DNA of 64,000 nucleotides from an uncultured Planctomycetota bacterium (GTDB lineage Bacteria > Planctomycetota > Planctomycetia > Isosphaerales > Isosphaeraceae): the NCBI GenBank assembly GCA_963737655.1, contig CAVTTN010000002.1, positions 1-64,000 of the forward strand. Direction: 5' to 3'. A program made the translations under genes and the position numbers. Shown piece by piece: positions 14,893 to 49,822 of the stretch. Below the pieces are notes generated by a model that was not told the DNA's origin, did no database searches, and saw only the letters and a list, made by a program, of their open reading frames with translations. How positions within the stretch are numbered: position 1 is the first letter of the stretch; each line of letters starts with the position of its first letter.

Positions 14893-17667
14893 GTGCAGAA
14901 TCAACAGACTTGCTGTGTGAGGCGTTCAAGCTGTTCGCAGCGGTAGTAGCGGCAGACCCGCTCCTCCACCTCGGCCGCCGTCAGCTTCCGCTCCGCCTCG
15001 ATGATCGCCCGCTTGCCGTGGACCCACTTCGGCTCGATCGCGTTGAGCCACGGCGACTTGACCGGCAGGTAGCAGGCCACGATCCGCACCCCGCCACCGG
15101 CCTTCGCCCGGCGGTTATGCTCCCGGATCCAGGCCCGCGCCCGCTCTGACGTGCCAGGCCGCGTTGTCCCAGACCAGCAGCAGCGCCGTCTTCCCCTCGG
15201 CGGCCAGCCGCGTGCAGGCCCAGGCCAGGAAGTCCTCGGTCACCTGGCTGACCGGCCGGCCCCGGACGAACCGCAGCAGCATCCCGCCGGTGTCGCCGCG
15301 CAGCAGCCCGTAGCAGGCCGGCGCCTTCGGGTCGGTGTCGGCGGCGTCGGCCGCCGGCTCGCGCAGCCGCCGCGGCTGGCCGCCGGCCCAGGCATGCAGC
15401 GCCGGCCGGGCCAGCCGGCTCCACCAGACCTCGTCCTGGAAGCCGAGCACCCAGTCGGGGTGCGACGCCGCCAGGCGGATCAGCCGGTCGCGCGCGTTTC
15501 TTTTCGCAGGTACGCCGGGTCGGGGCTGGTGATCCAGGCCTTGGCCCGCTTCCAGCCGGCTCCGAGGCGCCTCAGGGCCTGGCGGATCGTCTCGCCGCTG
15601 ACCGGCCGCGCGGTCAGGCCCTCGGCGAAGGCGACCTCGGCGGCCAGGGCCAGCGTCCAGAGCGAGGTCGGCTTGCCGAAGTCGCGGGGGCTGCGGTGCA
15701 GCAGGGCCCGCAGCCGCTCGCACCCGGCGTCGTCGATCTCCGGCCGGGCGGACCTGGGGCGATGCGAGCCCCTCGTTGAGGCAGTCGGTGCCGATGGCGT
15801 GGAAGGCGCGGATAGCGTTGCGGGCGGTCTGCGCCGAGCCGCCGAGCCGGGCGCCGATCAGGGCGGGCTTGAGCCCCTCGGCGCTGGCCAGGAGGATCTG
15901 GGAGCGCCGCAGGGTGAAGGCCGAGGGGGAGCGCAGGCCGTCCCTAAGCAGTAGTTTCCCTGAAAATCGAGCAACCGATCTGAAGTTCCGTATATCTTGA
16001 GCGGGGCATCTCCCCAGCGGACCTTGATGGGTGCTTACCCTCCCATCAACTCCGCAAACGGAGATGCCCCGATGCGGCAGGCTACAGTCGTCTGGTCCCT
16101 CTGGCAACTACTCCTCAAACCCTTCGCCTCCGCATTCACTCGACCCGGCTACCGCCGCTTCGTCGAGTGGGTCACCGCTCTATCCCTCAACGTCGAGGAG
16201 CACACCATCACCCAGTCGGTCGTCGCCATCGAGCGACTGGCCGACTGGAAGGCCCTGGAATCCTTCGCCGAGTACGCCGTCTGGAAGCCCGAGATCCTCA
16301 CCAGCAACCTCTCCGGACTCATCGACGAGGCTCCCGGCCGGATCTGGCACGGCTATCGGATCTCGGCCGTCGATGACACCAAGGTCCATCGCTCGGGCGA
16401 GCACGTCTGGGGCACATGCACCTTCCACGAATACACCGCTCGCTGTCCCAACCGGGCCACCACCGTCCGGGCTCACAACTGGGTCTGCCTCGGGGCCTTG
16501 CTCAAGAACGATGGCCAGCCCGCCTGGTATCTGCCGATCTCCGGGCGGCTCTACTTCCGCAAGTCGCAACTCCCCTTCCGCTGTGGCGTCGCCGGCCCCA
16601 AGCAGGTCTTCCGGACCAAGTGCGAACTGGCCGTCGAACTGCTGCGGGAACAGGCCCGGATCAACGCCGGGCCTCACCTGGGCGTCTTCGACGGCGGCTA
16701 CGCCCTGAAGAATGTCGTTCGGCCACTGGTCATGGCCGAAGAGGGCTTGCCTCGCATCGACTTCCTGACCCGGTTGCGGCACGACGCCCGACTCCACGCC
16801 CTGCCGCCGGCCAAGCGACCCAAGGGGAAACGAGGCCGGACTCCCGTGTGGGGCAAGAAGCTGTCCCCGCCTCGCCAGGGGGGACGCTGGCCCGGGGATT
16901 GGAAGAAGGGCGAGGCCTTTATCTACGGCCGGGTGCGAAAGGTCCGTTGGAAGGAGATCGCCTGCCTCTGGCGGGTGCTCGGACATGACGTGACGGTCAA
17001 GGCGGTGGTGGCCGAGGTCGAGGGTTACCAGAAGCGATTCACGGTGGTGAGTTCGGCGTTGGGTCTGAGCGGGTTGGAGATGGTCGAGTTGTTCGCCGCG
17101 AGGTTCCGCCAGGAGGACGGGTTCCGGGACCTGAAGCAGAGGCTGGGATGGGAGGAGTGTCGAGCCTGGACGAAGTCGCCGATCGAGCGGACGACGCAGG
17201 TGCAATGGATCACTATGAGCCTGCTGCGGCTGTTGCAATTCGCGTTGGATGAGCGAGGATGCACGGATTGGTGGTCGCCGCCGCCGTGGAACAAGAAGAA
17301 GGACCGAGCGAGCGTGCTGGACGTGGAGCGGTTGCTGAGGCGTCATCGGCCGGAAATCCAGCGTCTCCTCTCGAACTGGCTGAAACACGAGGAGAAAGTG
17401 GCCTGAGTGTAGGCCGCGATGAAGTATCGCAGATGGATCCGACGCACTCAAGGTGTCGGACGCCTGGTTTTCAGGGCCTCGGGAGCCGCTCGGCGGCGTC
17501 GAGGGGACGGAGATGCTACGCGACGTCGCGACGAGAGTGTCGATTTCCAGGGAAACTACTGCCTAAGGGCCCGGTGCTCCTCGGGGGACAACGGGCGGAC
17601 GAACAGGGGTGGCTTCATACCCTCTGTACGACGATGCCATCGAAAAGGATCAGCCTTGAATCTGCAC
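14893..17667 (-). mobile_element. IS630-family element, degenerate and interrupted by the IS at 15949-17561
   Basis: Ends GTGCAGA(A/T)TCAA; the ORF starts at 17618 (MKPPLFVRPLS...) and rejoins LRDGLRSPS; FQDEVWW, WDNAAWH and SPWLNAIE motifs. Confidence 0.85.
15949..17561 (+). mobile_element. IS4/IS701-superfamily element, copy 1 (transposase 15997/16072-17406)
   Basis: 22-bp TIR CAGTAGTTTCCCTG(A/G)AAATCGA; 6-bp TSD CCTAAG; DDT, DGGY and EDGFRDLKQ DDE motifs. Confidence 0.92.
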
Positions 17668-23696: not shown

Positions 23697-25452
23697 AAGC
23701 GCATGACGGGCGGCGATAAAACGCCGAAAGCCGGGTAGGTTTCCCTACCCGGCCTCGGTTGTGGGTGCCCCGACTGCCGCTCGCGGCGGGTGCAATCCTG
23801 GGCGGTCGAGCCGCCGAGGAGCATGAATTTTTGGCGCGGAGCACTGTCGGAGCACACAGGTCTTATCGGCTCGCGGTCGGCGGGGCTTGAAGAGGCTTGC
23901 CGTTGAAAGGCCCACGGTAGCCGTTCCCGGCGCGGGTTGCTTGGTCACGTCCGCGCGATTATAACGGCGGCATGGACCGGCCGACCTCGATCCCTCAGCA
24001 CGTCTGGGACAGCCTTTCGGATGAAGCCCGTGTGGTCATCGGCTCCGTCGTCGAGGGATTGGAACGACGGGTCGCCGAGTTGGAACAGCACGTCCGGGAT
24101 CTGATGGCCCGCCTAGAACAGGATTCCACCAACAGCTCCAGGCCGCCGTCGTCCGACCCGATCGGCGTCAAGCGGAAGCCACCTGCGCCGCCGTCGAGGG
24201 AGCGCCGGGGCGGGCAGAAGGCCCATCCGCGTCGGTTGAGGGCCCTGGTGCCGCCCGAGCGCGTCGCCTCGGTCACCGACTGTAAGCCGACGGAATGCCG
24301 GCGCTGTCGACGCCCGTTGAGCGGGGTGGACGCCCAACCCCGGCGCCACCAGGTGGCCGAACTGCCGCCGATCGAGCCGGAGGTGCATGAGTGCCGGCTC
24401 CATCGCCTCGGTTGCCCCCACTGCAGGACGGTCACCTGCGGGACGCTGCCCGATGGCGTGCCCCGCACGTCGTTCGGGCCCCGTTTGCACGCGGCCCTCG
24501 GCGTGTTGACCGGGGCGTACCGGCTGAGCAAGCGGCAGGTCGTGCAGCTCGGCTCCGACCTCCTGGGCCTGACGATCTCCGTCGGAATGATCTCCAAGCT
24601 GGAGCGGATCACGGCGGAGGTGCTGGAGCAACCGGCGGCCGAGTTGGCCGAGGCGGTGAAGGCGGCCCAGGCGGCGAACATCGACGAGACGGGCTGGCGG
24701 GAGGCGCACCTCAAGGCCTGGCTCTGGGTCGTGGTGACCTCGGTGGGGGTCGTCTTCCGCATCGCCCGCTCGCGGGCCGGGGCGGTGGCCGCGGACCTGC
24801 TCGGTGAGGAGCCGAAGCCGATCGTCATCAGCGACCGCTGCCCCGGCTACGAGTGGATCAAGCTGAAGTCGAGGCAAGTTTGCTGGGCCCACCTGCGTCG
24901 CGATTTCCAGGCGATGATCGACCGCGATGGCGACGGCGCCGAGGTCGGACGGCAACTGCTCTGGCAGTCGAACGAGCTGTTCGAATCCTGGCACAAGGTC
25001 CGCGACGGCACCATCCAACGATCGACGTTCCATCAATACCTCGCGTGGCTGCGGCCGATGGTCCGTTCGAGCCTGGGGCGCGGGTCTCGATGTGCCTGTC
25101 CGAAGACGGCGGCGACGTGCGGCGAGTTGCTGCGCCTGTGGGATTGCCTGTGGACCTTCACCCAGGTCGACGGCGTCGAGCCGACGAACAACGCGGCGGA
25201 GCGAGCGTTGCGGCACGCCGTGATCTGGCGGCGGATCAGCGGTGGGACTGACAGCGAAGGCGGGAGCAGGTTCGTGGAGCGGATGCTGTCGGTGGTGGCC
25301 ACCTGCCGGCTGCAGAAGCGTAGCGTGCTGGAGTACTTGACGCGGTGTCATCAAGCCTATCGTCACGCCCAACACGTCCCCTCCCTTTTGTCGCCGGCCG
25401 CGTCCCTGACTCGCGCCGGGTGATCGTATCCGCTCGCCCTCTCGACGGAGAC

Positions 25453-25806
25453 TCAATGTCGTGGGGCCACTTCCGCTGTGTCGTTCGGCAACGTCGAATC
25501 AGCTGTAATCCTCCCGCGAGCAACGCATTTGTTGCCCTCGTACAGTTCGAACTCCCTGCCCTCACGAAGTGAGTCGTGCGGTGCCTCGTCAAAGAGGTAA
25601 TGAACGTCGGCGACCCACCGAAACTCCGTGCTGAGTGATTCACGCTTGACGATGACTAACGACCAGGACGCACCTGCCGGGGGCCAAGGATCGTCGAGGA
25701 ACCGCACTTCGGTGGCATATGCAGGAATTCCGACTCCGAGAGGGGGCCTGGAACGCCCGCCATCAGCCTTTGGAATCCAGTCCACTACCGCACACTTCGT
25801 GACCAT
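25453..25806 (-). CDS. Stand-alone EF-Tu domain III-like protein, putative immunity protein
   Basis: VDWIPKADGGRSRP...LREGREFELYEGNKCVARGRI resembles EF-Tu VYILSKDEGGRHTP...GLRFAIREGGRTVGAGVV; directly follows the toxin-like ORF. Confidence 0.6.
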   Translation of the reverse strand: MVTKCAVVDWIPKADGGRSRPPLGVGIPAYATEVRFLDDPWPPAGASWSLVIVKRESLSTEFRWVADVHYLFDEAPHDSLREGREFELYEGNKCVARGRITADSTLPNDTAEVAPRH

Positions 25807-26165
25807 TTCGATGACTCCAAGGGGCGTGGTTTGAGCGGCGGCAAGTCATCGTTATGGAGATAACGCGCCGGGCGATGACCGTCGAGATTCGGACGAGTAG
25901 AGAGACTCGGAGCGTTGTTCGGGACGTCAACTTCGATGAGTTTATACTTCCCGTCGGGGAACAAGGGACGTGTCCTGCTATTCCCTAGGGCGTGGGACTT
26001 GGCGCCTTCGAGGGAGTCGGCAAACCATTTCCCTTCGAGCGAGTTGGGGCCTTGTCGAAGTTGGCCGGTCTTGAGTATGTCCTGATACTCCGCCTCACTT
26101 ACCGCACGGTAGACGCGAGTGTAACCGTCGGGCACCGGCAACTTGTTCGGGGCGTGAACGCCTAC
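25785..26165 (-). pseudogene. Orphan C-terminal polymorphic-toxin tip, putative ADP-ribosyltransferase fold
   Basis: RVYRAVSEAEYQDILKTGQL...KWF...YKLIEVDVP; begins at the IS end with no native start. Confidence 0.55.
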
Positions 26166-26262
26166 GGTCCACGAGATTGACGCCTTTATCGGCGGCAAGT
26201 AAAACTTCGTACAGTCGATCAAGGAACACGACGAAAACGCTCGGGGTTTAGAGGATCTCACC

Positions 26263-26766
26263 ATGCCCGCCCGCAAGGCCGACAAGACTTCCAAACCCGG
26301 AGACGGGCAACCGGTCGATAGCACGGAGGCACAAGGCGAAACGTCGCTGCCGGAAGCCATGACCGGCAGGGCAAGCCCCGCGAAGGCCGCGGTCGGCGAC
26401 AAGCCGGTTTTCGCCTACATCGCCAGCCTGCCGCAACCGCAGCGCGGCATCGCTGAGAGCGTCGACGCCCTGGGGACAAGGACGCTGCCCGGCTTACAGC
26501 GCTCCGTGAAGTGGGGCATGTCGTACTATGGGGTCGGCGACGGCTGGTGCTTCAGTTGCGGCGGCTTCGCCGGCCACGTCAAGCTCATGTTCATCAACGG
26601 AGCAGCGCTCGATCCGGTACCGCCGGTGACGCCGGTGGGGATGGGCAAGTCAACGCGGGGCGTGGAACTCGAATCCGTGGACGACATGGACGAAAGCCAG
26701 ATCGCTTCGTGGATGAAGCAAGTCGCGGCCGTGCCCGGTGTCGGGAGGAAGAAGCGTAAGGACTGA
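26263..26766 (+). CDS. DUF1801-domain protein
   Basis: VFAYIASLP...SVKWGMSYYG...VKLMFINGAALDP. Confidence 0.75.
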   Translation: MPARKADKTSKPGDGQPVDSTEAQGETSLPEAMTGRASPAKAAVGDKPVFAYIASLPQPQRGIAESVDALGTRTLPGLQRSVKWGMSYYGVGDGWCFSCGGFAGHVKLMFINGAALDPVPPVTPVGMGKSTRGVELESVDDMDESQIASWMKQVAAVPGVGRKKRKD

Positions 26767-30780: not shown

Positions 30781-31262
30781 ACAGTCTCGCGATGGACCTT
30801 CTCACCACGGTGCGGGCAACCACGCCGGAGCGGTTTGAGAGGCTCGTTGTCGATCTGCTGGTAAGAATGGGTTACGGCGGAACGAGGCGAGACGCAGGCC
30901 AGGCACTAGGGAGGAGCGGAGACGGAGGGATTGACGGCATCATCAAGGAAGACCGTCTCGGTCTCGACGCCATCTACATTCAGGCAAAGTGGTGGGCGTA
31001 CACAAACGGGGTTGGTAGGCCTGAGATCCAGAAGTTCGCAGGAGCCTTGCAAGGGCACCGAGCGAGGAAAGGGGTCTTCATCACGACGTCTTACTTCACC
31101 AGAGACGCCGAGGATTACGTGACTCGCATCGACAGCAAGATCGTTCTCATCGACGGGGAGACCCTTGCCCAGCTCATGATTGACCACGGGCTGGGGGTGG
31201 CCCCCATTGCTGCCTACGAGGTGAAGCGAATCGACTCGGATTATTTCACCGACGAGGAGTAA
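30781..31262 (+). pseudogene. mrr: Mrr restriction endonuclease catalytic domain, 5' part removed at the Tn3 end
   Basis: FERLVVDLL.MGY, DGGIDG, IYIQAK, KGVFITTS. Confidence 0.85.
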
Positions 31263-34962: not shown

Positions 34963-35372
34963 ATAAGCAGATCCGTCTCTGATTGGATGCCGGTGCTAAA
35001 GGGCCGCAAAAGACCGGCCGCTCGAATAGCACCATGATGCAGGATGCGGAGGCAAATGACATCTCCGCCCGCGATCATCGATCTGTTCCGCGGAGCGAAC
35101 ATCCTTTGGGAGCCGAGGAGCTGGGGTCGAAAAGAGCGACGCCGCGCCCGCGAGCGCAGCCCAGTTCGTCCGATCGAAGATCGCGGCGGCCGGCAGCGCA
35201 AATCGGGAGTCGGCGCCCCCGAATCCGGAGTATGTGGACGTAATCGTAGCCGACCGTTGCTAAATCGATGCGAAAGTCGGGTCTTACCGGCCCAGACTCA
35301 CTCGAGAATATCCGCCTTGCCGTGTCCGGCGACCCGGCGCATAATCCTTCAACTTTCTTGAAGGATTATGCA

Positions 35373-35975
35373 ATGCCCCGTTCGACCCGAGAAGCCGCAA
35401 GGTCGCTCCGCACGACGGCCCAGGAGCAGGGCGGCTATTTCACCGCAAAGCAAGCTAAAGTATCGGGTTACGACTATCCGCACCTCGAGTACCACCTGTC
35501 GACCGGGGCGTTCGAGCGGGTTGAGCACGGGCTCTACAGGCTCGCCGACATGCCAACGGCTGAGAATGAGGATCTCATTCGGCTTTCCCTCTGGAGCCGG
35601 AATCGCGCCGACGAACCGCAAGCCGTCGTGTCGCACGAATCGGCGTTGGTCCTGCACGATCTGACGGAGCTGCTCCCGAACGAGATTCACCTCACCGTAC
35701 CTCAGGGATTTCGAAAAGAAGCGCCACCGGGATGCGTTCTTCACAAGGCGGTCCTTGCGGCAGGCGACATCGAAGAGAGGATCGGTTTCCGGGCCACGAC
35801 CCCACTTCGGACGCTTCTTGACGTTGCGGCCGGCACCATCAGCCAGGAGCAGCTGGAGAGGGCGGTGGCGGAGGCTCTGGAGCGAGGCGTTGTTCGGAGG
35901 AGCAAACTCGTCGCGGCGATTCGCCGATCTCCCGGGCTGCATCGCCTCAGGCATGCATTGGGAGCGAGTCTCTGA
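35373..35975 (+). CDS. abiEi: Type IV TA antitoxin, AbiEi family
   Basis: QGGYFT, GLYRL, VVSHESALVLH, TTPLRTLLD. Confidence 0.88.
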   Translation: MPRSTREAARSLRTTAQEQGGYFTAKQAKVSGYDYPHLEYHLSTGAFERVEHGLYRLADMPTAENEDLIRLSLWSRNRADEPQAVVSHESALVLHDLTELLPNEIHLTVPQGFRKEAPPGCVLHKAVLAAGDIEERIGFRATTPLRTLLDVAAGTISQEQLERAVAEALERGVVRRSKLVAAIRRSPGLHRLRHALGASL

Positions 35976-36007
35976 GCTGAACGCGGACCGAAAAAGGCAA
36001 GGAAGCC

Positions 36008-36895
36008 ATGGCAAGACACTTCGGATCGGCGGCGGCCTTCAAGGCATCGCTCGAGGCCCACCTGCGAAAGCTGGCTGGCGAACGCACCACTCCATTGAGC
36101 ACGCTCCAGCTGAAGCTCGTCATCGAGAGGCTCCTCGCGCGGCTATTCCGGGAGCCGAATCCGCCTTGGCTCCTCAAAGGCGGTTTCGCGATGGATCTCC
36201 GGTTCCGGCCACGCGCGAGAACGACGAAGGACGTCGACATTTCGCTCGCGCTTGGGGCGGGAGACTCCGTCGAATTCTCGGCCGCATTCCGCGAGCAGCT
36301 CCAGGAGACCGTCGACTTCGAACTGGGCGACTATCTCACCTACCGCATCGGAAGTCCGAAGCGCGAACTCACCAACGCGCCGCGAGGCGGGGCGCGGTAT
36401 CCGTGCGAGGCGGTCCTCGTCGGCAAGACCTACGCCAAGTTCCACATCGATGTCGGTTGCGGCGATGTGCTCGTCGGCGAGCCCGAAAGGATCGTCGGCG
36501 ACGATCTCTTGTCGTTCGCCGGCATCCCCCCCGCCGAGGTTCTCGCGATCTCCAAGGCCCAACAGTTCGCCGAGAAGGTCCACGCCTACTCGTTCGCGTG
36601 GAAGGATCGCCTCAACACCCGGACCAAAGACCTCGTCGACCTCGTGCTCCTGATCGAGCGCGGTCTTCCCGACGTCGACCAGATACGAGCGGCCCTCGCT
36701 GTGACGTTTTCGTCGAGGGCGACGCACCCGATGCCGGCAGAGCTTGCGTCCCCTCCGACGGCTTGGGCGACGGATTTCCCCGCAATGGCGGCCGAGGCGG
36801 GGCTCTCGACGAGCGACTACCTCCAGGCGTTCGCGATTCTCGACGCATTCTGGACTGCGGGTTCGCTGTTCTCGACCAGCCCGCCGGCGGAGTAA
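36008..36895 (+). CDS. abiEii: AbiEii/AbiGii nucleotidyltransferase toxin
   Basis: LLKGG, RTTKDVD, AEKVHA, RTKDLVDL. Confidence 0.9.
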   Translation: MARHFGSAAAFKASLEAHLRKLAGERTTPLSTLQLKLVIERLLARLFREPNPPWLLKGGFAMDLRFRPRARTTKDVDISLALGAGDSVEFSAAFREQLQETVDFELGDYLTYRIGSPKRELTNAPRGGARYPCEAVLVGKTYAKFHIDVGCGDVLVGEPERIVGDDLLSFAGIPPAEVLAISKAQQFAEKVHAYSFAWKDRLNTRTKDLVDLVLLIERGLPDVDQIRAALAVTFSSRATHPMPAELASPPTAWATDFPAMAAEAGLSTSDYLQAFAILDAFWTAGSLFSTSPPAE

Positions 36896-39947: not shown

Positions 39948-40193
39948 GTGGAATCCGTCGGGACTTTCGAGGCCAAGACGCACCTCACCCGCCTCCTGGA
40001 GCGGGTCGCGAAAGGCGAGCGGATCGTCATCACGAACCGGGGCAAGCCCGTCGCCATGCTCGTGCCCCCCGAGGTCGGCGATCGGGCCGATGTCGCGGAA
40101 GTCGGCCGGGCCATGCTGGCCTACCGCGACCAGGTGAAACGCGAGCTCGGCGGTTCTTTCCGCGACCTGGCGCACGAGGGCCATCGGCACTGA
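39948..40193 (+). CDS. Phd/YefM-family antitoxin
   Basis: GTFEAKTHLTRLLERV..GE.IVIT.RGKPVA. Confidence 0.9.
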   Translation: MESVGTFEAKTHLTRLLERVAKGERIVITNRGKPVAMLVPPEVGDRADVAEVGRAMLAYRDQVKRELGGSFRDLAHEGHRH

Positions 40194-40216
40194 TCGGGGT
40201 CCGATATTCGATGATC

Positions 40217-40645
40217 ATGCCTCACCCGCCCGACCGCTTCGTGCTGGACGGCTCGATCACCCTGGCCTGGCTCTTCCACGACGAGAAGGATCCTTACGCG
40301 GACGCGATCGTGGGCAAACTCCCGCGACTCGAGATGCTCGTGCCGAGGCTGTGGCACCTGGAGATCGCGAACGTCCTGCTCGTCGGCGAGCGCCGCGGCC
40401 GTTGCACCCAGGCGGACGTGACGACCTGGCTCTCGTTCCTCTCGGGGCTCCCGGTCGTCGTCGACCGCGACACCGAGGCGCGGGCGTGGTCCGACACCAT
40501 CCCCCTGGGGCGGCAGTACGGTCTGAGCGCCTACGACGCCGCCTACCTGGAGCTGGCGTTGCGCGAGGGCGTCCCGCTCGCCACCCTCGACGCGAGGCTC
40601 GAGGCCGCGGCGACGGCGGCCGGTGTGGCGATCTATCAACCGTGA
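40217..40645 (+). CDS. vapC: VapC PIN-domain toxin
   Basis: FVLDGS, EIANVL, LSAYDAAYLELA, LATLD. Confidence 0.9.
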   Translation: MPHPPDRFVLDGSITLAWLFHDEKDPYADAIVGKLPRLEMLVPRLWHLEIANVLLVGERRGRCTQADVTTWLSFLSGLPVVVDRDTEARAWSDTIPLGRQYGLSAYDAAYLELALREGVPLATLDARLEAAATAAGVAIYQP

Positions 40646-41090: not shown

Positions 41091-41741
41091 TCACCCCCTG
41101 GCAACCGGGATCGTATCGATATGAATTGATGAAACTTCGCCAGTGAGCCAGACGTGGCCCGCCGTCGTGAGGAACTCGGCCCCGCCCCCGGCCGCTTCGG
41201 CGGAGCGCACCCGCAACACGATCCACGACCCGCCGGCCGCCCTCGCGACCCCCAGGGCATAACCGAGGTCCGACGTGAGGTGGACATAAGCCCGCCTCAT
41301 CGGGCGGAGCCCGTGCTCCCGGATCCGCCCTTCGCGGTCCGAGGACGTGCCGTGGAAGAGTCGGGCCGGCGGAGACGCCGGACGGGCCGCGACGACGCCG
41401 GGCAGGGAGTGCCCGTAGAGGGCCCGGATCTTCCCCGGGCGGATCTCGAACCGCCCCGAGTCCTGCGTCCGGACGAGGTCCTCGAGACACCGGACGTTGA
41501 CGGCCTGCAGACGCTGTCCCGCCCCCCGGACGGCCCGCGCCACGTCCCTGAGATTCGCCCAACCCTCCGCGTCGACCGCGACCCCCCGAGGGGGCCCGCC
41601 ATGCCGGAGCAGGAACGCCAGGACGCGGACCAGCGACGGACCTTCCTCTTCCAGCCCCATCGCGAACCCGGCGGTGTCCGAGGCGGCCTCGGCGAAGATG
41701 AGCGCCGCGCGTCTCCGCAGTTCATCGTCCTCGTTCGACAT
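41091..41741 (-). CDS. kptA: RNA 2'-phosphotransferase, Tpt1/KptA family
   Basis: LLRH, DAEGW, RFE, IRALYGHS, LFHGT, GLRPMRRAYVHLT. Confidence 0.85.
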   Translation of the reverse strand: MSNEDDELRRRAALIFAEAASDTAGFAMGLEEEGPSLVRVLAFLLRHGGPPRGVAVDAEGWANLRDVARAVRGAGQRLQAVNVRCLEDLVRTQDSGRFEIRPGKIRALYGHSLPGVVAARPASPPARLFHGTSSDREGRIREHGLRPMRRAYVHLTSDLGYALGVARAAGGSWIVLRVRSAEAAGGGAEFLTTAGHVWLTGEVSSIHIDTIPVARG

Positions 41742-42854: not shown

Positions 42855-45047
42855 GTAGCCGTTCCCGGCGCGGGTTGCTTGGTCACGTCCGCGCGATTAT
42901 AACGGCGGCATGGACCGGCCGACCTCGATCCCTCAGCACGTCTGGGACAGCCTTTCGGATGAAGCCCGTGTGGTCATCGGCTCCGTCGTCGAGGGATTGG
43001 AACGACGGGTCGCCGAGTTGGAACAGCACGTCCGGGATCTGATGGCCCGCCTAGAACAGGATTCCACCAACAGCTCCAGGCCGCCGTCGTCCGACCCGAT
43101 CGGCGTCAAGCGGAAGCCACCTGCGCCGCCGTCGAGGGAGCGCCGGGGCGGGCAGAAGGCCCATCCGCGTCGGTTGAGGGCCCTGGTGCCGCCCGAGCGC
43201 GTCGCCTCGGTCACCGACTGTAAGCCGACGGAATGCCGGCGCTGTCGACGCCCGTTGAGCGGGGTGGACGCCCAACCCCGGCGCCACCAGGTGGCCGAAC
43301 TGCCGCCGATCGAGCCGGAGGTGCATGAGTGCCGGCTCCATCGCCTCGGTTGCCCCCACTGCAGGACGGTCACCTGCGGGACGCTGCCCGATGGCGTGCC
43401 CCGCACGTCGTTCGGGCCCCGTTTGCACGCGGCCCTCGGCGTGTTGACCGGGGCGTACCGGCTGAGCAAGCGGCAGGTCGTGCAGCTCGGCTCCGACCTC
43501 CTGGGCCTGACGATCTCCGTCGGAATGATCTCCAAGCTGGAGCGGATCACGGCGGAGGTGCTGGAGCAACCGGCGGCCGAGTTGGCCGAGGCGGTGAAGG
43601 CGGCCCAGGCGGCGAACATCGACGAGACGGGCTGGCGGGAGGCGCACCTCAAGGCCTGGCTCTGGGTCGTGGTGACCTCGGTGGGGGTCGTCTTCCGCAT
43701 CGCCCGCTCGCGGGCCGGGGCGGTGGCCGCGGACCTGCTCGGTGAGGAGCCGAAGCCGATCGTCATCAGCGACCGCTGCCCCGGCTACGAGTGGATCAAG
43801 CTGAAGTCGAGGCAAGTTTGCTGGGCCCACCTGCGTCGCGATTTCCAGGCGATGATCGACCGCGATGGCGACGGCGCCGAGGTCGGACGGCAACTGCTCT
43901 GGCAGTCGAACGAGCTGTTCGAATCCTGGCACAAGGTCCGCGACGGCACCATCCAACGATCGACGTTCCATCAATACCTCGCGTGGCTGCGGCCGATGGT
44001 CCGTTCGAGCCTGGGGCGCGGGTCTCGATGTGCCTGTCCGAAGACGGCGGCGACGTGCGGCGAGTTGCTGCGCCTGTGGGATTGCCTGTGGACCTTCACC
44101 CAGGTCGACGGCGTCGAGCCGACGAACAACGCGGCGGAGCGAGCGTTGCGGCACGCCGTGATCTGGCGGCGGATCAGCGGTGGGACTGACAGCGAAGGCG
44201 GGAGCAGGTTCGTGGAGCGGATGCTGTCGGTGGTGGCCACCTGCCGGCTGCAGAAGCGTAGCGTGCTGGAGTACTTGACGCGGTGTCATCAAGCCTATCG
44301 TCACGCCCAACACGTCCCCTCCCTTTTGTCGCCGGCCGCGTCCCTGACTCGCGCCGGGTGATCGTATCCGCTCGCCCTCTCGACGGAGACTCAATGTCGT
44401 GGGGCCACTTCCGCTGTGTCGTTCGGCAACGTCGAATCAGCTGTAATCCTCCCGCGAGCAACGCATTTGTTGCCCTCGTACAGTTCGAACTCCCTGCCCT
44501 CACGAAGTGAGTCGTGCGGTGCCTCGTCAAAGAGGTAATGAACGTCGGCGACCCACCGAAACTCCGTGCTGAGTGATTCACGCTTGACGATGACTAACGA
44601 CCAGGACGCACCTGCCGGGGGCCAAGGATCGTCGAGGAACCGCACTTCGGTGGCATATGCAGGAATTCCGACTCCGAGAGGGGGCCTGGAACGCCCGCCA
44701 TCAGCCTTTGGAATCCAGTCCACTACCGCACACTTCGTGACCATTTCGATGACTCCAAGGGGCGTGGTTTGAGCGGCGGCAAGTCATCGTTATGGAGATA
44801 ACGCGCCGGGCGATGACCGTCGAGATTCGGACGAGTAGAGAGACTCGGAGCGTTGTTCGGGACGTCAACTTCGATGAGTTTATACTTCCCGTCGGGGAAC
44901 AAGGGACGTGTCCTGCTATTCCCTAGGGCGTGGGACTTGGCGCCTTCGAGGGAGTCGGCAAACCATTTCCCTTCGAGCGAGTTGGGGCCTTGTCGAAGTT
45001 GGCCGGTCTTGAGTATGTCCTGATACTCCGCCTCACTTACCGCACGG
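42855..45047 (+). mobile_element. IS66-family element copy B (direct repeat of 23917-26109), right end deleted
   Basis: Identical transposase (42910-44361) and 117-aa passenger (44391-44744); cut by the IS starting at 45048. Confidence 0.9.
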
Positions 45048-46948
45048 CTGTACTTTCCGGGATTTTATAGCTTCCGAACCGTCGGTCGGGTCCGAGGCCG
45101 CGCGAGGATTGGAATCAGCCGCTCTCGAGGCTCAGTTCCCAGCCCGTGCTCAGACAGAGTATCTCCCAGCAGTGGGAGACCTGGGCAACGCCCCGGTTGA
45201 CCTGAACCCAGACTCGCTCCACAGGACCGCCGGTACCGAGGTTGAAGGTGACTTCGTATGATTCGGATTCCACGTGGCCGCACATGAAGGAGGGTCGCTG
45301 CTCCAGGGCTCCACTCACCATCTCTGGCAGCGCGATCCCTCGTGCGTTAAGGCTCGCGAGCTTCTCCCGGCCGGACGGTGACCAGTCGAACGCGACATCA
45401 GGGAATACGGCGCGAAGTGACTGCTGGACCGAAGTCGGTGTGCCCAGCGGCTGGCCGTCGTCTCGTTGGAGCGTTCCCTGGATACACACGAGCGGAGCCG
45501 CCTGTCCAAATCGATTAGACGGGGGCCGGCCCGAGCGGGACGATGGCGGTTACCACACCAGCCTGACACCCCGAGCGGAGCCGGCCCCCGATGACATCCT
45601 CGCATCTCACGCCCGCCCCGTGCCAGTGGTTCTCCTGGCTCGCCGTCGCCCTCGACCGTCGCTCCGCTCCCCGGCTCGCCCTGCTGTTCCTCGGCGCCGT
45701 CCTGGCCCGGGGCCGGCGCACCGTCACCACCTGGATCAGGGCGGCCAAGCTCGGCGGTCAATATCAGCGCTGCTACGTCGCCGTGGCGGCCGCCGGCAAG
45801 CGGGCCGATCGCATCGCCCGACGACTGCTGACCGAGGTGGTCCGGCCGCTCCTCAAGGGGGCCACGCGGCTAACCCTCGCCCTGGACGACACCCCGACGA
45901 AGCGGTATGGCCCGCACGTCCAGGGGGCCGGCGTGCATCACAACCCGACACCCGGCCCTGCCGGTTCGCCCTATGTCTACGGCCATGTCTTCGTCGTCCT
46001 GGCCCTGCTCGTGGCCCATCCGTCGTGGGGAGTCGTCGCCCTGCCGCTGCTGGCCCGGCTCTACGTCCGCAAGAAGGACCTGCCGGGCATCGACCCGAAG
46101 CATCGGCCGCCGTTCCGCACCAAGCTGGAAATGGCCGTCGAACTGCTGCGGTGGGCCAAGCCCTGGCTGGGGCTGCTGGGATTGCCGATCCGGGTGGTGG
46201 CCGACGGTGCCTATGCCAAGGCGGCCTTCCTCAAGCCGGCGATGTCACTGGGCATGACGGTCGTCAGCCGACTCAGAAAGGATGCGGCGTTGCGGACGTT
46301 GCCCGGCCCACGGCCGGCGGGGAAGCGGGGCCGGCCGCGGACCTACGGGGAGGAAAAGATCGACCTGGCCAAGCGAGGCGGCCAGCGGCGTGGCTGGTCG
46401 TCCGACACGTTCGACCTTTACGGGCAGAAGGCGGTCAAGAAGTACAAGACGTTCCTGGCGACCTGGCGGCCGGCCGGTGGCGCGATCCGAGTGGTGCTGG
46501 TCGATGAGCCGACCGGATGGCGGGCCTATTTCTGCTCCGACACCGAGGCGAGCGTGGCCGACATCCTGGGGATGGTGTCCGACCGGTTCAGCCTGGAGAT
46601 CACCTTTCGCGAGTGCAAGCAGGTCGTCGGGGCGGGCCAACAGCAGGTGCGGTTCATCTGGGCGAACATCGGGGCGTTCCACGTCTGCCTGTGGACGTTC
46701 ACGCGGACCGAGGCGTGGGCCTGGGGCCGGAAGCAGGAGGAGTTGGTAGACCGCTCGGGCTCGCCGTGGGATAGCTCGCCGCGCCGTCCGAGCCACGCGG
46801 ACAAGCGGCGGGCGTGGCGTCGTGAATTGCTGGGCGAGGAGATTCGTGCGACTCTACGCCCGGGGGCGACCGAGGCGGAAATCCCGGCCATGGCAGAAAG
46901 GCTGCTCAGCTTGGCCGCATGAGATATACATTCACCCGGAAAGTACAG
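45048..46948 (+). mobile_element. IS701/IS4-like element (transposase 45591-46922) with a passenger ORF
   Basis: 14-bp TIR CTGTACTTTCCGGG; DDTPTKRYG, ADGAY, RFSLEITFRECKQ; no TSD. Confidence 0.88.
45115..45489 (-). CDS. Hypothetical passenger protein inside the IS
   Basis: 124-aa ORF with globular-protein composition, between the left TIR and the transposase. Confidence 0.5.
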   Translation of the reverse strand: MCIQGTLQRDDGQPLGTPTSVQQSLRAVFPDVAFDWSPSGREKLASLNARGIALPEMVSGALEQRPSFMCGHVESESYEVTFNLGTGGPVERVWVQVNRGVAQVSHCWEILCLSTGWELSLESG

Positions 46949-47708: not shown

Positions 47709-48088
47709 TCCCGGTAGCAACTCGATTCAGTAGGCCCACCGGAGCGTTACCGGCGGGGGAGTTCGGAAATCTGCGCAAAAAAAGGACGGCGGTGTGGTGG
47801 CCGCCGTCGCGATTCAAGCAATTTACCCCAACTCAGGAACCCGCGCAATGAAAAAAGACCGACGACCATGGCCCTTATTGCGGCTGCATCAAATGCAAGC
47901 CGCTCGACGCTGCCGACCCCGCAGAAACGGGCGAGTGGCCAGCCCTCACACCGGATGCATTGGCTGCTCGGGAGGAAGGGGGAGGTGCCGGTACTCTCAC
48001 CGGCATGCAGGGAAACCCCGCACTGTCACGCCTGAAAGGAGGTGGCGTTCCCCCAGCCAATCGCCGGTGACTGGCCAACCCTACTAAG

Positions 48089-49701
48089 CAGTAGTTTCCC
48101 TGGAAATCGACACTCTCGTCGCGACGTCGCGTAGCATCTCCGTCCCCTCGACGCCGCCGAGCGGCTCCCGAGGCCCTGAAAACCAGGCGTCCGACACCTT
48201 GAGTGCGTCGGATCCATCTGCGATACTTCATCGCGGCCTACACTCAGGCCACTTTCTCCTCGTGTTTCAGCCAGTTCGAGAGGAGACGCTGGATTTCCGG
48301 CCGATGACGCCTCAGCAACCGCTCCACGTCCAGCACGCTCGCTCGGTCCTTCTTCTTGTTCCACGGCGGCGGCGACCACCAATCCGTGCATCCTCGCTCA
48401 TCCAACGCGAATTGCAACAGCCGCAGCAGGCTCATAGTGATCCATTGCACCTGCGTCGTCCGCTCGATCGGCGACTTCGTCCAGGCTCGACACTCCTCCC
48501 ATCCCAGCCTCTGCTTCAGGTCCCGGAACCCGTCCTCCTGGCGGAACCTCGCGGCGAACAACTCGACCATCTCCAACCCGCTCAGACCCAACGCCGAACT
48601 CACCACCGTGAATCGCTTCTGGTAACCCTCGACCTCGGCCACCACCGCCTTGACCGTCACGTCATGTCCGAGCACCCGCCAGAGGCAGGCGATCTCCTTC
48701 CAACGGACCTTTCGCACCCGGCCGTAGATAAAGGCCTCGCCCTTCTTCCAATCCCCGGGCCAGCGTCCCCCCTGGCGAGGCGGGGACAGCTTCTTGCCCC
48801 ACACGGGAGTCCGGCCTCGTTTCCCCTTGGGTCGCTTGGCCGGCGGCAGGGCGTGGAGTCGGGCGTCGTGCCGCAACCGGGTCAGGAAGTCGATGCGAGG
48901 CAAGCCCTCTTCGGCCATGACCAGTGGCCGAACGACATTCTTCAGGGCGTAGCCGCCGTCGAAGACGCCCAGGTGAGGCCCGGCGTTGATCCGGGCCTGT
49001 TCCCGCAGCAGTTCGACGGCCAGTTCGCACTTGGTCCGGAAGACCTGCTTGGGGCCGGCGACGCCACAGCGGAAGGGGAGTTGCGACTTGCGGAAGTAGA
49101 GCCGCCCGGAGATCGGCAGATACCAGGCGGGCTGGCCATCGTTCTTGAGCAAGGCCCCGAGGCAGACCCAGTTGTGAGCCCGGACGGTGGTGGCCCGGTT
49201 GGGACAGCGAGCGGTGTATTCGTGGAAGGTGCATGTGCCCCAGACGTGCTCGCCCGAGCGATGGACCTTGGTGTCATCGACGGCCGAGATCCGATAGCCG
49301 TGCCAGATCCGGCCGGGAGCCTCGTCGATGAGTCCGGAGAGGTTGCTGGTGAGGATCTCGGGCTTCCAGACGGCGTACTCGGCGAAGGATTCCAGGGCCT
49401 TCCAGTCGGCCAGTCGCTCGATGGCGACGACCGACTGGGTGATGGTGTGCTCCTCGACGTTGAGGGATAGAGCGGTGACCCACTCGACGAAGCGGCGGTA
49501 GCCGGGTCGAGTGAATGCGGAGGCGAAGGGTTTGAGGAGTAGTTGCCAGAGGGACCAGACGACTGTAGCCTGCCGCATCGGGGCATCTCCGTTTGCGGAG
49601 TTGATGGGAGGGTAAGCACCCATCAAGGTCCGCTGGGGAGATGCCCCGCTCAAGATATACGGAACTTCAGATCGGTTGCTCGATTTTCAGGGAAACTACT
49701 G
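48089..49701 (-). mobile_element. IS4/IS701-superfamily element, copy 2 (inverted relative to copy 1)
   Basis: Same TIRs and identical transposase; 6-bp TSD ACTAAG. Confidence 0.92.
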
Positions 49702-49822
49702 ACTAAGGGCGCTCCATCGGTTTCGACTTTTCTACGCTCCACCGATTTCACAGCACCCCGTTCGCACGGGATTCAACGACCAAACTAAATCACAGTTCCA
49801 CCCTTCGCACAAGGACATTTCG

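Follow-up and report, generated by a model that had tools for sequence, protein, structure and literature searches.

Among the described systems closest to the one presented here is TreTu/TriTu of Salmonella. TreTu is a small ART fold at the C-terminus of an Rhs protein (PDB 7ZHL, 7ZHM; PF24691) that modifies Asp21 in domain I of EF-Tu, where it was modelled on helix D, and it is blocked by TriTu, an unrelated alpha/beta lid consisting of a five-stranded sheet and two helices (PMC9825190). Other polymorphic toxin tips also engage EF-Tu. Those with solved structures attach to domain II, in the case of CdiA-CT EC869 and NC101 (PMC9071432), or at the GDP site, in the case of Serratia Rhs2CT; Salmonella Rhs2 is a further example (PMC9071432; bioRxiv 10.1101/2025.10.28.685041; 10.64898/2026.05.10.723254). 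These CdiA-CT and Rhs2 tips are nucleases, unlike the predicted ART toxin described below, and no account of an EF-Tu origin of their immunity proteins was found in the literature covered.

Most known immunity proteins block the active site of their toxin with an unrelated fold. The immunity protein of colicin D is reportedly a tRNA mimic, and the poxvirus protein K3L is a decoy of eIF2-alpha. The mechanisms of immunity given in PMC13556189 are steric occlusion, enzymatic reversal, rearrangement, allosteric block and active-site mimicry, the last represented by the Tdi immunity protein. Colicin D immunity, Tdi immunity and K3L have in common, with the protein proposed here, neutralization by imitating something that the enzyme normally binds. 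However, the first two are not presented as copies of the target gene, whereas the present protein is homologous to one domain of the protein that its toxin presumably targets. K3L differs in coming from a virus and in inhibiting a kinase.

We analysed a window of 64,000 nucleotides from an uncultured Planctomycetota bacterium. On its minus strand, an orphan toxin tip with a predicted ART fold (25785..26165), with neither a carrier domain nor an ATG of its own, precedes a 117-aa ORF (25453..25806), a stand-alone homologue of EF-Tu domain III and putative immunity protein. We call an EF-Tu domain III-like gene directly downstream of a toxin tip the partner. Both the ORF and the toxin-like text upstream of it are present as originally predicted, and so is the overlap of the toxin frame with the ORF start, which arises because the stop codon of a relative (L001) reads Ser in the window and the frame continues for 10 codons. 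An orphan tip with its immunity gene and without a carrier is a known arrangement; the module in the window rides in an IS66-family element.

The partner is placed by its predicted fold. Its AF2 model, built from 56 sequences, has six strands and a mean pLDDT of 83.7. Foldseek returned only EF-Tu among the matches listed, and the top four VIA matches are all EF-Tu domain III (Z 9.9-10.3, rmsd 2.9-3.3, 89-92 aligned residues), led by residues 305-396 of 4iw3_B (Z 10.3, rmsd 2.9, 89 aligned). Other translational GTPases rank after EF-Tu, at Z 9.3 and below. The first Atlas match (0.94) is a cluster with PF03143 in 10% of its members. At the sequence level, 55 of 57 candidates are close homologues, and the family extends to 836 clusters at E<=1e-3. 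The Pfam scan of the window protein gave no match, with the PF03143 cut-off not reached, and PF03143 matched 9 of 119 partner relatives weakly (best E 2.5e-4); one EF-Tu-proximal partner (L118) clears the cut-off with 41.1 bits. Sequence-only PDB searches returned nothing significant for partner or toxin, and a broad partner profile ranked EF-Tu first in the PDB at only E=0.05. Some proteins carry the domain III-like module fused to other domains or duplicated (L118:1498-2541; P0056, P0078, P0144). Tandem partner copies, resembling immunity arrays, are found at L009:57-695, L043 and L044, one of them behind a toxin remnant.

The partner is connected to EF-Tu by profiles as well. Searched against EF-Tu domain III of the same genome, the partner family profile gave P=3.7e-5 (probability 71%), which, together with the fold Z of 10.3, puts the domain III likeness asserted by the original prediction beyond chance. 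The broad profile picks up stand-alone proteins much nearer to EF-Tu (L118, E 7e-6; L119, E 4e-5). A profile of five such EF-Tu-proximal stand-alones has matches in 282 of 301 genomes, with E down to 1e-21, and the matches listed are mostly frames of EF-Tu length. In the genome of the window, the matches of this profile at E<1 are limited to another stand-alone, EF-Tu and the two copies in the window. When 19 stand-alones were compared with NCBIfam, nine matched bacterial EF-Tu models and none matched a CysN or SelB model. Judged from these sequences, the 117-aa ORF is linked to bacterial EF-Tu through intermediate relatives, the window clade itself being only about 20% identical to EF-Tu. The tree is unrooted; since EF-Tu is universal, the direction was presumably from EF-Tu to the stand-alones. 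The partner shares with EF-Tu domain III (PF03143) the predicted six-stranded barrel and a continuous chain of homologues, and differs from EF-Tu in standing alone, without the G-domain or domain II.

The toxin frame of the window has no match in a Pfam scan. The AF2 model of the toxin, built from 62 sequences, has a pLDDT of 91.2. In VIA, TreTu ranks first (Z 7.1, rmsd 2.3, 81 aligned residues, 22% identity), with diphtheria-type, RES, Tpt1 and CC0527 structures so close behind, within 1 Z, that the result is a tie. All 50 matches listed are ART-fold by title, none at Z 8 or above, and the best Foldseek E is 0.046. The ART-fold assignment is therefore based on the uniformity of the match list and not on one strong match, and the frame is best described as a predicted ART-fold domain outside every Pfam family tested. 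In 189 aligned toxin rows, R13, K39 and F41 are conserved at 100%, and E19 and D88 at 99%. The canonical H-Y-E or R-S-E triad is not found in the family. The model places the Arg on beta-1, W/F on beta-2 and an Ala at the opening of beta-5, with the near-invariant Asp88 just before it; beta-5, as assigned from the model, has no Glu. By their spacing, W40 and H51 presumably correspond to the two nicotinamide-site aromatics of H-Y-E ARTs. R13 and E19 are six residues apart, as are R6 and E12 of TreTu, both of which are essential (PMC9825190); this comparison is built on the numbering in that article, not on aligned TreTu homologues.

Membership of the toxin in TreTu_C (PF24691) was rejected: one of 62 members matched, at E=0.066, and none of 119 further homologues did at E<=0.02. 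No TreTu_C member was found in 260 genomes and 14 controls. The resemblance to TreTu noted by the original prediction holds for the ART fold, for the top (tied) structural neighbour and for the Arg-to-Glu spacing. The two toxins share the beta-1 Arg, the Glu six residues later and an immunity gene directly downstream. In contrast to TreTu, the present toxin has an aromatic residue instead of His on beta-2 and, in its model, lacks the long C-terminal helix. The partner model is an all-beta EF-Tu barrel, unlike the alpha/beta lid of TriTu. Since Asp21 lies in domain I and TriTu is an unrelated lid, TreTu is no direct precedent for a domain III decoy.

Toxin homologues are spread over Planctomycetota, Alpha- and Gammaproteobacteria, Bacteroidota and other groups. 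Of 359 candidates for longer homologues, 41 were retained, and these carry the domain C-terminally; among 17 long carriers scanned, RHS repeats were seen in six and PT-HINT in two. A Met stands just before the toxin domain in 12 of 45 short-frame homologues. No toxin relative was found in viral contigs with a single toxin query.

The pair is cargo of an IS66-family element of 2,249 bp (23917..26165, plus strand), whose terminal inverted repeats are imperfect and whose 8-bp target duplication contains one mismatch. Its 483-aa transposase (23972..25423, plus strand; PF03050, E=5e-30) is convergent with the pair. The element thus has the DDE transposase, the inverted repeats and the approximately 8-bp target duplication of IS66. 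tnpA and tnpB are absent inside the element, only tnpC being present between the repeats; IS66 does include a subgroup with a single ORF. One Isosphaeraceae MAG carries four copies of a related element at different sites (L001-L004), with 87-88% identity over about 2,080 bp and target duplications of 8-9 bp, three of them clear and one imperfect.

The open frame of the toxin tip starts inside the terminal repeat. The toxin frame takes its first residues from the right repeat, and because a full-length carrier (P0234) has the same residues, the IS end was likely taken from a toxin gene, on the strength of this one case. Since the reading frame stays open through the terminal repeat, the tip could be joined to new N-termini by transposition. 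At L003:6583-7992 (P0205), the IS is inserted in frame in another ORF, fusing this ORF to the toxin tip. At L026:2982-3710, the pair, its IS end decayed, lies immediately behind lpdA, and next to it comes a DDE_5-type IS resembling the neighbour of the second copy in the window. A TTG-started ORF of 205 aa was rejected as the true gene start, its first 79 codons being outside the IS and partly antisense to a DUF1801 gene. No promoter-like or terminator-like sites were found in 25300-26400.

The second occurrence of the pair in the window, claimed in the original prediction, does exist, but it is a single recent duplication in which the toxin start has been lost. Self-BLAST shows that 23917-26109 and 42855-45047 are 100% identical over 2,193 bp, and a duplicate of this kind was rejected as independent support. 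The second element (42855..45047, plus strand) lies inside tnpB of another IS66, and its right end is missing. Its partner (44391..44744, minus strand; ORF list and self-BLAST) is identical to the first, and its toxin tip (44723..45047, minus strand) is 5'-truncated, with a stop closing the frame a few codons upstream of the conserved Arg. The copy is cut at 45048 by another IS. The following DNA is more than 99% like an IS elsewhere in the genome, and a DDE_5 transposase is found at 45591-46922, to the right of the copy.

The window toxin lacks an ATG and its stop codon, and has Arg at position 91, where 97% of its relatives have Gly; this copy may therefore be decaying. The dN/dS of the toxin between the window and L001 is 0.16 (p=8e-6). 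That of the partner is 0.85 against L001, on few changes, and 0.29 against L026. These values suggest that the tip was translated within the IS lineage, like the internally started Rhs tips (PMC7043789).

Several other features of the window deserve mention. A Tpt1/KptA-family 2'-phosphotransferase (PF01885), an NAD-using ART-fold protein, is encoded at 41091-41741 (minus strand), 2.7 kb from the second copy. An AbiEi/AbiEii pair (35268-36895), a Phd/PIN pair (39948-40645) and an Mrr-type nuclease (30792-31262) lie among Tn3, IS66, DDE_3 and DDE_5 transposases, and the region looks like a mobile defence island. A near-identical inverted repeat of 1.6 kb (15942-17565 and 48085-49709, 99.8%) is probably another IS pair.

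In dozens of bacteria, the two genes are direct neighbours. Metagenome contigs were searched with the toxin only, and the best 80 of 152 confirmed relatives were taken as toxin loci; the query alignment consisted of toxins found beside partners, and the count covers that lineage. A partner match starting between -60 and +120 bases from the end of the toxin frame was counted as linked. By this measure, 73 of these 80 loci carry a partner directly downstream, which bears out the toxin-immunity gene linkage of the original prediction. The other seven comprise two at a contig edge, four with a disrupted toxin and one (L064) with an intact toxin and no partner. In the reverse direction, 17 of 25 partner loci have a toxin directly upstream, four of them being IS copies in one genome, and no adjacent toxin is found at the remaining eight main-clade loci. 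With a wider toxin profile, nine further matches were obtained in 4 of 17 genomes of another phylum. Eight are followed directly by a domain III gene, and one is at a contig end. These pairs include L118, L119, L155 and L157, in whose partners long EF-Tu motifs persist, and a third subtype that is also found behind a 491-aa carrier (L166). The pair family is rare, being detected in 3 of 301 genomes of the phylum of the window and in 2 of 301 in another class. Neither of the outcomes that had been named as speaking against the prediction, namely a partner without the domain III barrel and homologues unlinked to toxin tips, was seen.

Toxin and partner also share their history. Their pairwise identities are correlated across 61 non-redundant pairs with less than 90% toxin identity (Mantel rho 0.69), a value reached by none of 2,000 permutations. 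In trees of 34 selected pairs, toxin (support 100/99) and partner (93/96) both set the same 28 main-clade rows apart from those of the EF-Tu-proximal and third types. Several small subclades recur in both trees, three toxin subclades matching three partner subclades. As far as sequences tell, the two are inherited as a unit. This is joint inheritance and not physical contact, because relatedness alone can yield such agreement of trees and identities. Mutual information between toxin and partner columns in 62 pairs gave no signal, with a maximum Z of 5.3 vs 4.8-6.3 in neighbour-swap controls.

Domain III-like genes also occur without the toxin. Six EF-Tu-proximal stand-alones (L107, L111, L121, L123, L127, L145) have no toxin nearby. 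One of them, a distant relative in the same genome as the window (G000:C2:4506809-4507222; L107:4810-5223, minus strand), has no such toxin within the 10 kb fetched. In E. coli NZ_CP141089.1 (L120:5688-7940), a partner homologue without the toxin lies among small ORFs of unknown function, which form an island flanked by housekeeping genes. This stretch is found in 173 of 5,426 complete E. coli genomes and is possibly an orphan immunity cluster. At L021, an orphan partner is located beside a Tdi1 immunity gene. Paired core sites resembling attC follow the toxin-less EF-Tu-proximal genes in L123 and L127. Downstream of partners in general, attC-like sites are not enriched (2 of 101 regions vs a shuffle mean of 0.8 and maximum of 3).

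Which part of EF-Tu the partner has retained can be read from the alignment, with the EF-Tu numbering of the partner columns fixed by the 60-residue spacing from Arg to Glu. Eight EF-Tu sequences agree fully in 55 columns of domain III, of which 21 hold polar or charged residues. In a comparison of 62 partners, only two of these 21 are conserved in 90% or more, namely R318 (94%) and E378 (100%), and all five distant partners examined have both. In the window partner, G17, R18, Y30, E90 and G91 equal G317, R318, Y326, E378 and G379 of EF-Tu. Overall, G316-G317-R318, P321, Y326, F374 and E378-G379 are kept in the partner, whereas H319 (kept in 3% of the 62), Q329, R333, M349, M351, R373 and R377 are not. 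G317, R318, H319 and E378 form one EF-Tu pocket beside tRNA/tmRNA, and EF-Tu R318A is not viable (bioRxiv 10.1101/2023.06.09.544387). EF-Tu R318 and H319 contact tRNA (PMC9071432). By chance, both survivors would belong to the three polar residues of the pocket with a probability of 0.014, a value calculated post hoc from EF-Tus of one phylum. Retention of R318 and E378 could also have a structural cause, for example a salt bridge, and the use of the retained patch as an interface is our inference. Several of the most conserved partner positions (W10, W48, S49, P76) differ from the EF-Tu residues.

The partner very probably has an immunity role, because of its gene position, its joint inheritance with the toxin and the orphan copies beside other immunity genes. 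Regarding the mechanism, we lean slightly towards a partner derived from EF-Tu domain III that neutralizes an ART-fold toxin as a decoy of the EF-Tu surface that the toxin recognizes. The toxin would bind NAD+ through R13, E19, W40 and H51, and would dock on, or ADP-ribosylate, the Gly317-Arg318-Glu378 patch of domain III that faces tRNA/tmRNA, thereby blocking translation. The partner would display the same patch (G17-R18-E90) on a dispensable barrel and, with its gained lineage-specific loops, would outcompete EF-Tu for the toxin. The toxicity of the tip, its use of NAD, any physical binding and the part of EF-Tu as target or docking site are all inferred here. The decoy reading is favoured because it explains both the EF-Tu origin of the partner and its one retained charged patch; linkage, joint inheritance and TreTu as the top toxin match also speak for it. 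Against it stand the use of domain I, domain II or the GDP site by the known EF-Tu toxins, the loss of H319, the possible structural role of R318/E378, the tie of the TreTu match with other ARTs, the EF-Tu identity of about 20%, the toxin-less stand-alones and loci, and the toxin at L064 without a partner. No toxin was found described as binding EF-Tu domain III in the literature covered. ART-fold tips can also be NADases or RNA/tRNA modifiers (PMC13285283, PMC13617354).

We regard one alternative as rather unlikely: the EF-Tu-derived partner may be a borrowed scaffold that plugs the NAD cleft with its own loops (W10, Y30, W48-S49, A75-P76), the target being unrelated to EF-Tu, that is, NAD+ itself, RNA or another protein. 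W10, W48, S49 and P76 are highly conserved yet are not EF-Tu residues, as expected of such loops; active-site occlusion is usual among immunity proteins (PMC13556189); and the toxin, which lacks a Glu on the predicted beta-5, resembles the NADase Tne5, which does not need its acidic residue. However, a plug of this kind leaves unexplained why the immunity gene originated from EF-Tu, why the deepest-branching pairs keep long EF-Tu motifs and why two charged residues are common to all subclades. The RNA-facing nature of the retained patch raises another option, in which the toxin ADP-ribosylates tRNA or tmRNA, as related ART folds act on RNA (RhsP2, TreThr, Tpt1), and the partner guards the T-arm of the RNA through the patch instead of binding the toxin. 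This is improbable: H319, Q329 and R333 are lost in partners, one isolated EF-Tu domain should bind tRNA weakly, and the matched toxin and partner subclades fit cognate protein-protein binding better. Finally, EF-Tu is required by some toxins for activity or entry (CdiA-CT EC869, Serratia Rhs2), so the partner might replace EF-Tu as a permissive factor, being an activator or chaperone with no inhibition. We consider this very improbable, as the window toxin has no other candidate immunity gene behind it, and partner orphans, such as those at L021 and in the E. coli island, behave like orphan immunity genes.

The decoy reading can be extended, though with somewhat less than an even chance of being right as a whole. 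Widespread, undescribed ART toxins would attack the tRNA pocket of domain III, possibly ADP-ribosylating Arg318/Glu378, and immunity would be conferred by a domesticated copy of the domain acting as a decoy or sacrificial substrate. The toxin-less stand-alones, in integron-like cassettes and in the E. coli island, would be orphan decoys, and the IS66 element would have captured the pair as an addiction module.

The toxin-immunity pair is of a known kind; immunity derived from EF-Tu was not found described. Neither protein belongs to the curated toxin or immunity families of Pfam and PADLOC or, for partners, NCBIfam, and PADLOC gave no match for eight proteins. No description of an EF-Tu-derived immunity protein was found in titles and the beginnings of abstracts; subscription papers or supplements may name the family otherwise. 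The first 300,000 of the 357,715 characters of PMC3482391 contain neither 'EF-Tu' nor 'elongation factor', and a term search of PMC11148199 found no EF-Tu-derived immunity protein. If the decoy reading is true, copying a domain of an essential protein would be a direct way for an immunity gene to arise, and extant proteins intermediate between EF-Tu and the diverged partner allow this path to be followed. The likely target of an uncharacterized toxin family would then be named from the fold of its neighbour. It would point to a conserved, essential pocket of EF-Tu for which no use by a toxin was found in the literature covered, and it would give a testable function to stand-alone EF-Tu domain III genes, including one present in about 3% of complete E. 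coli genomes.
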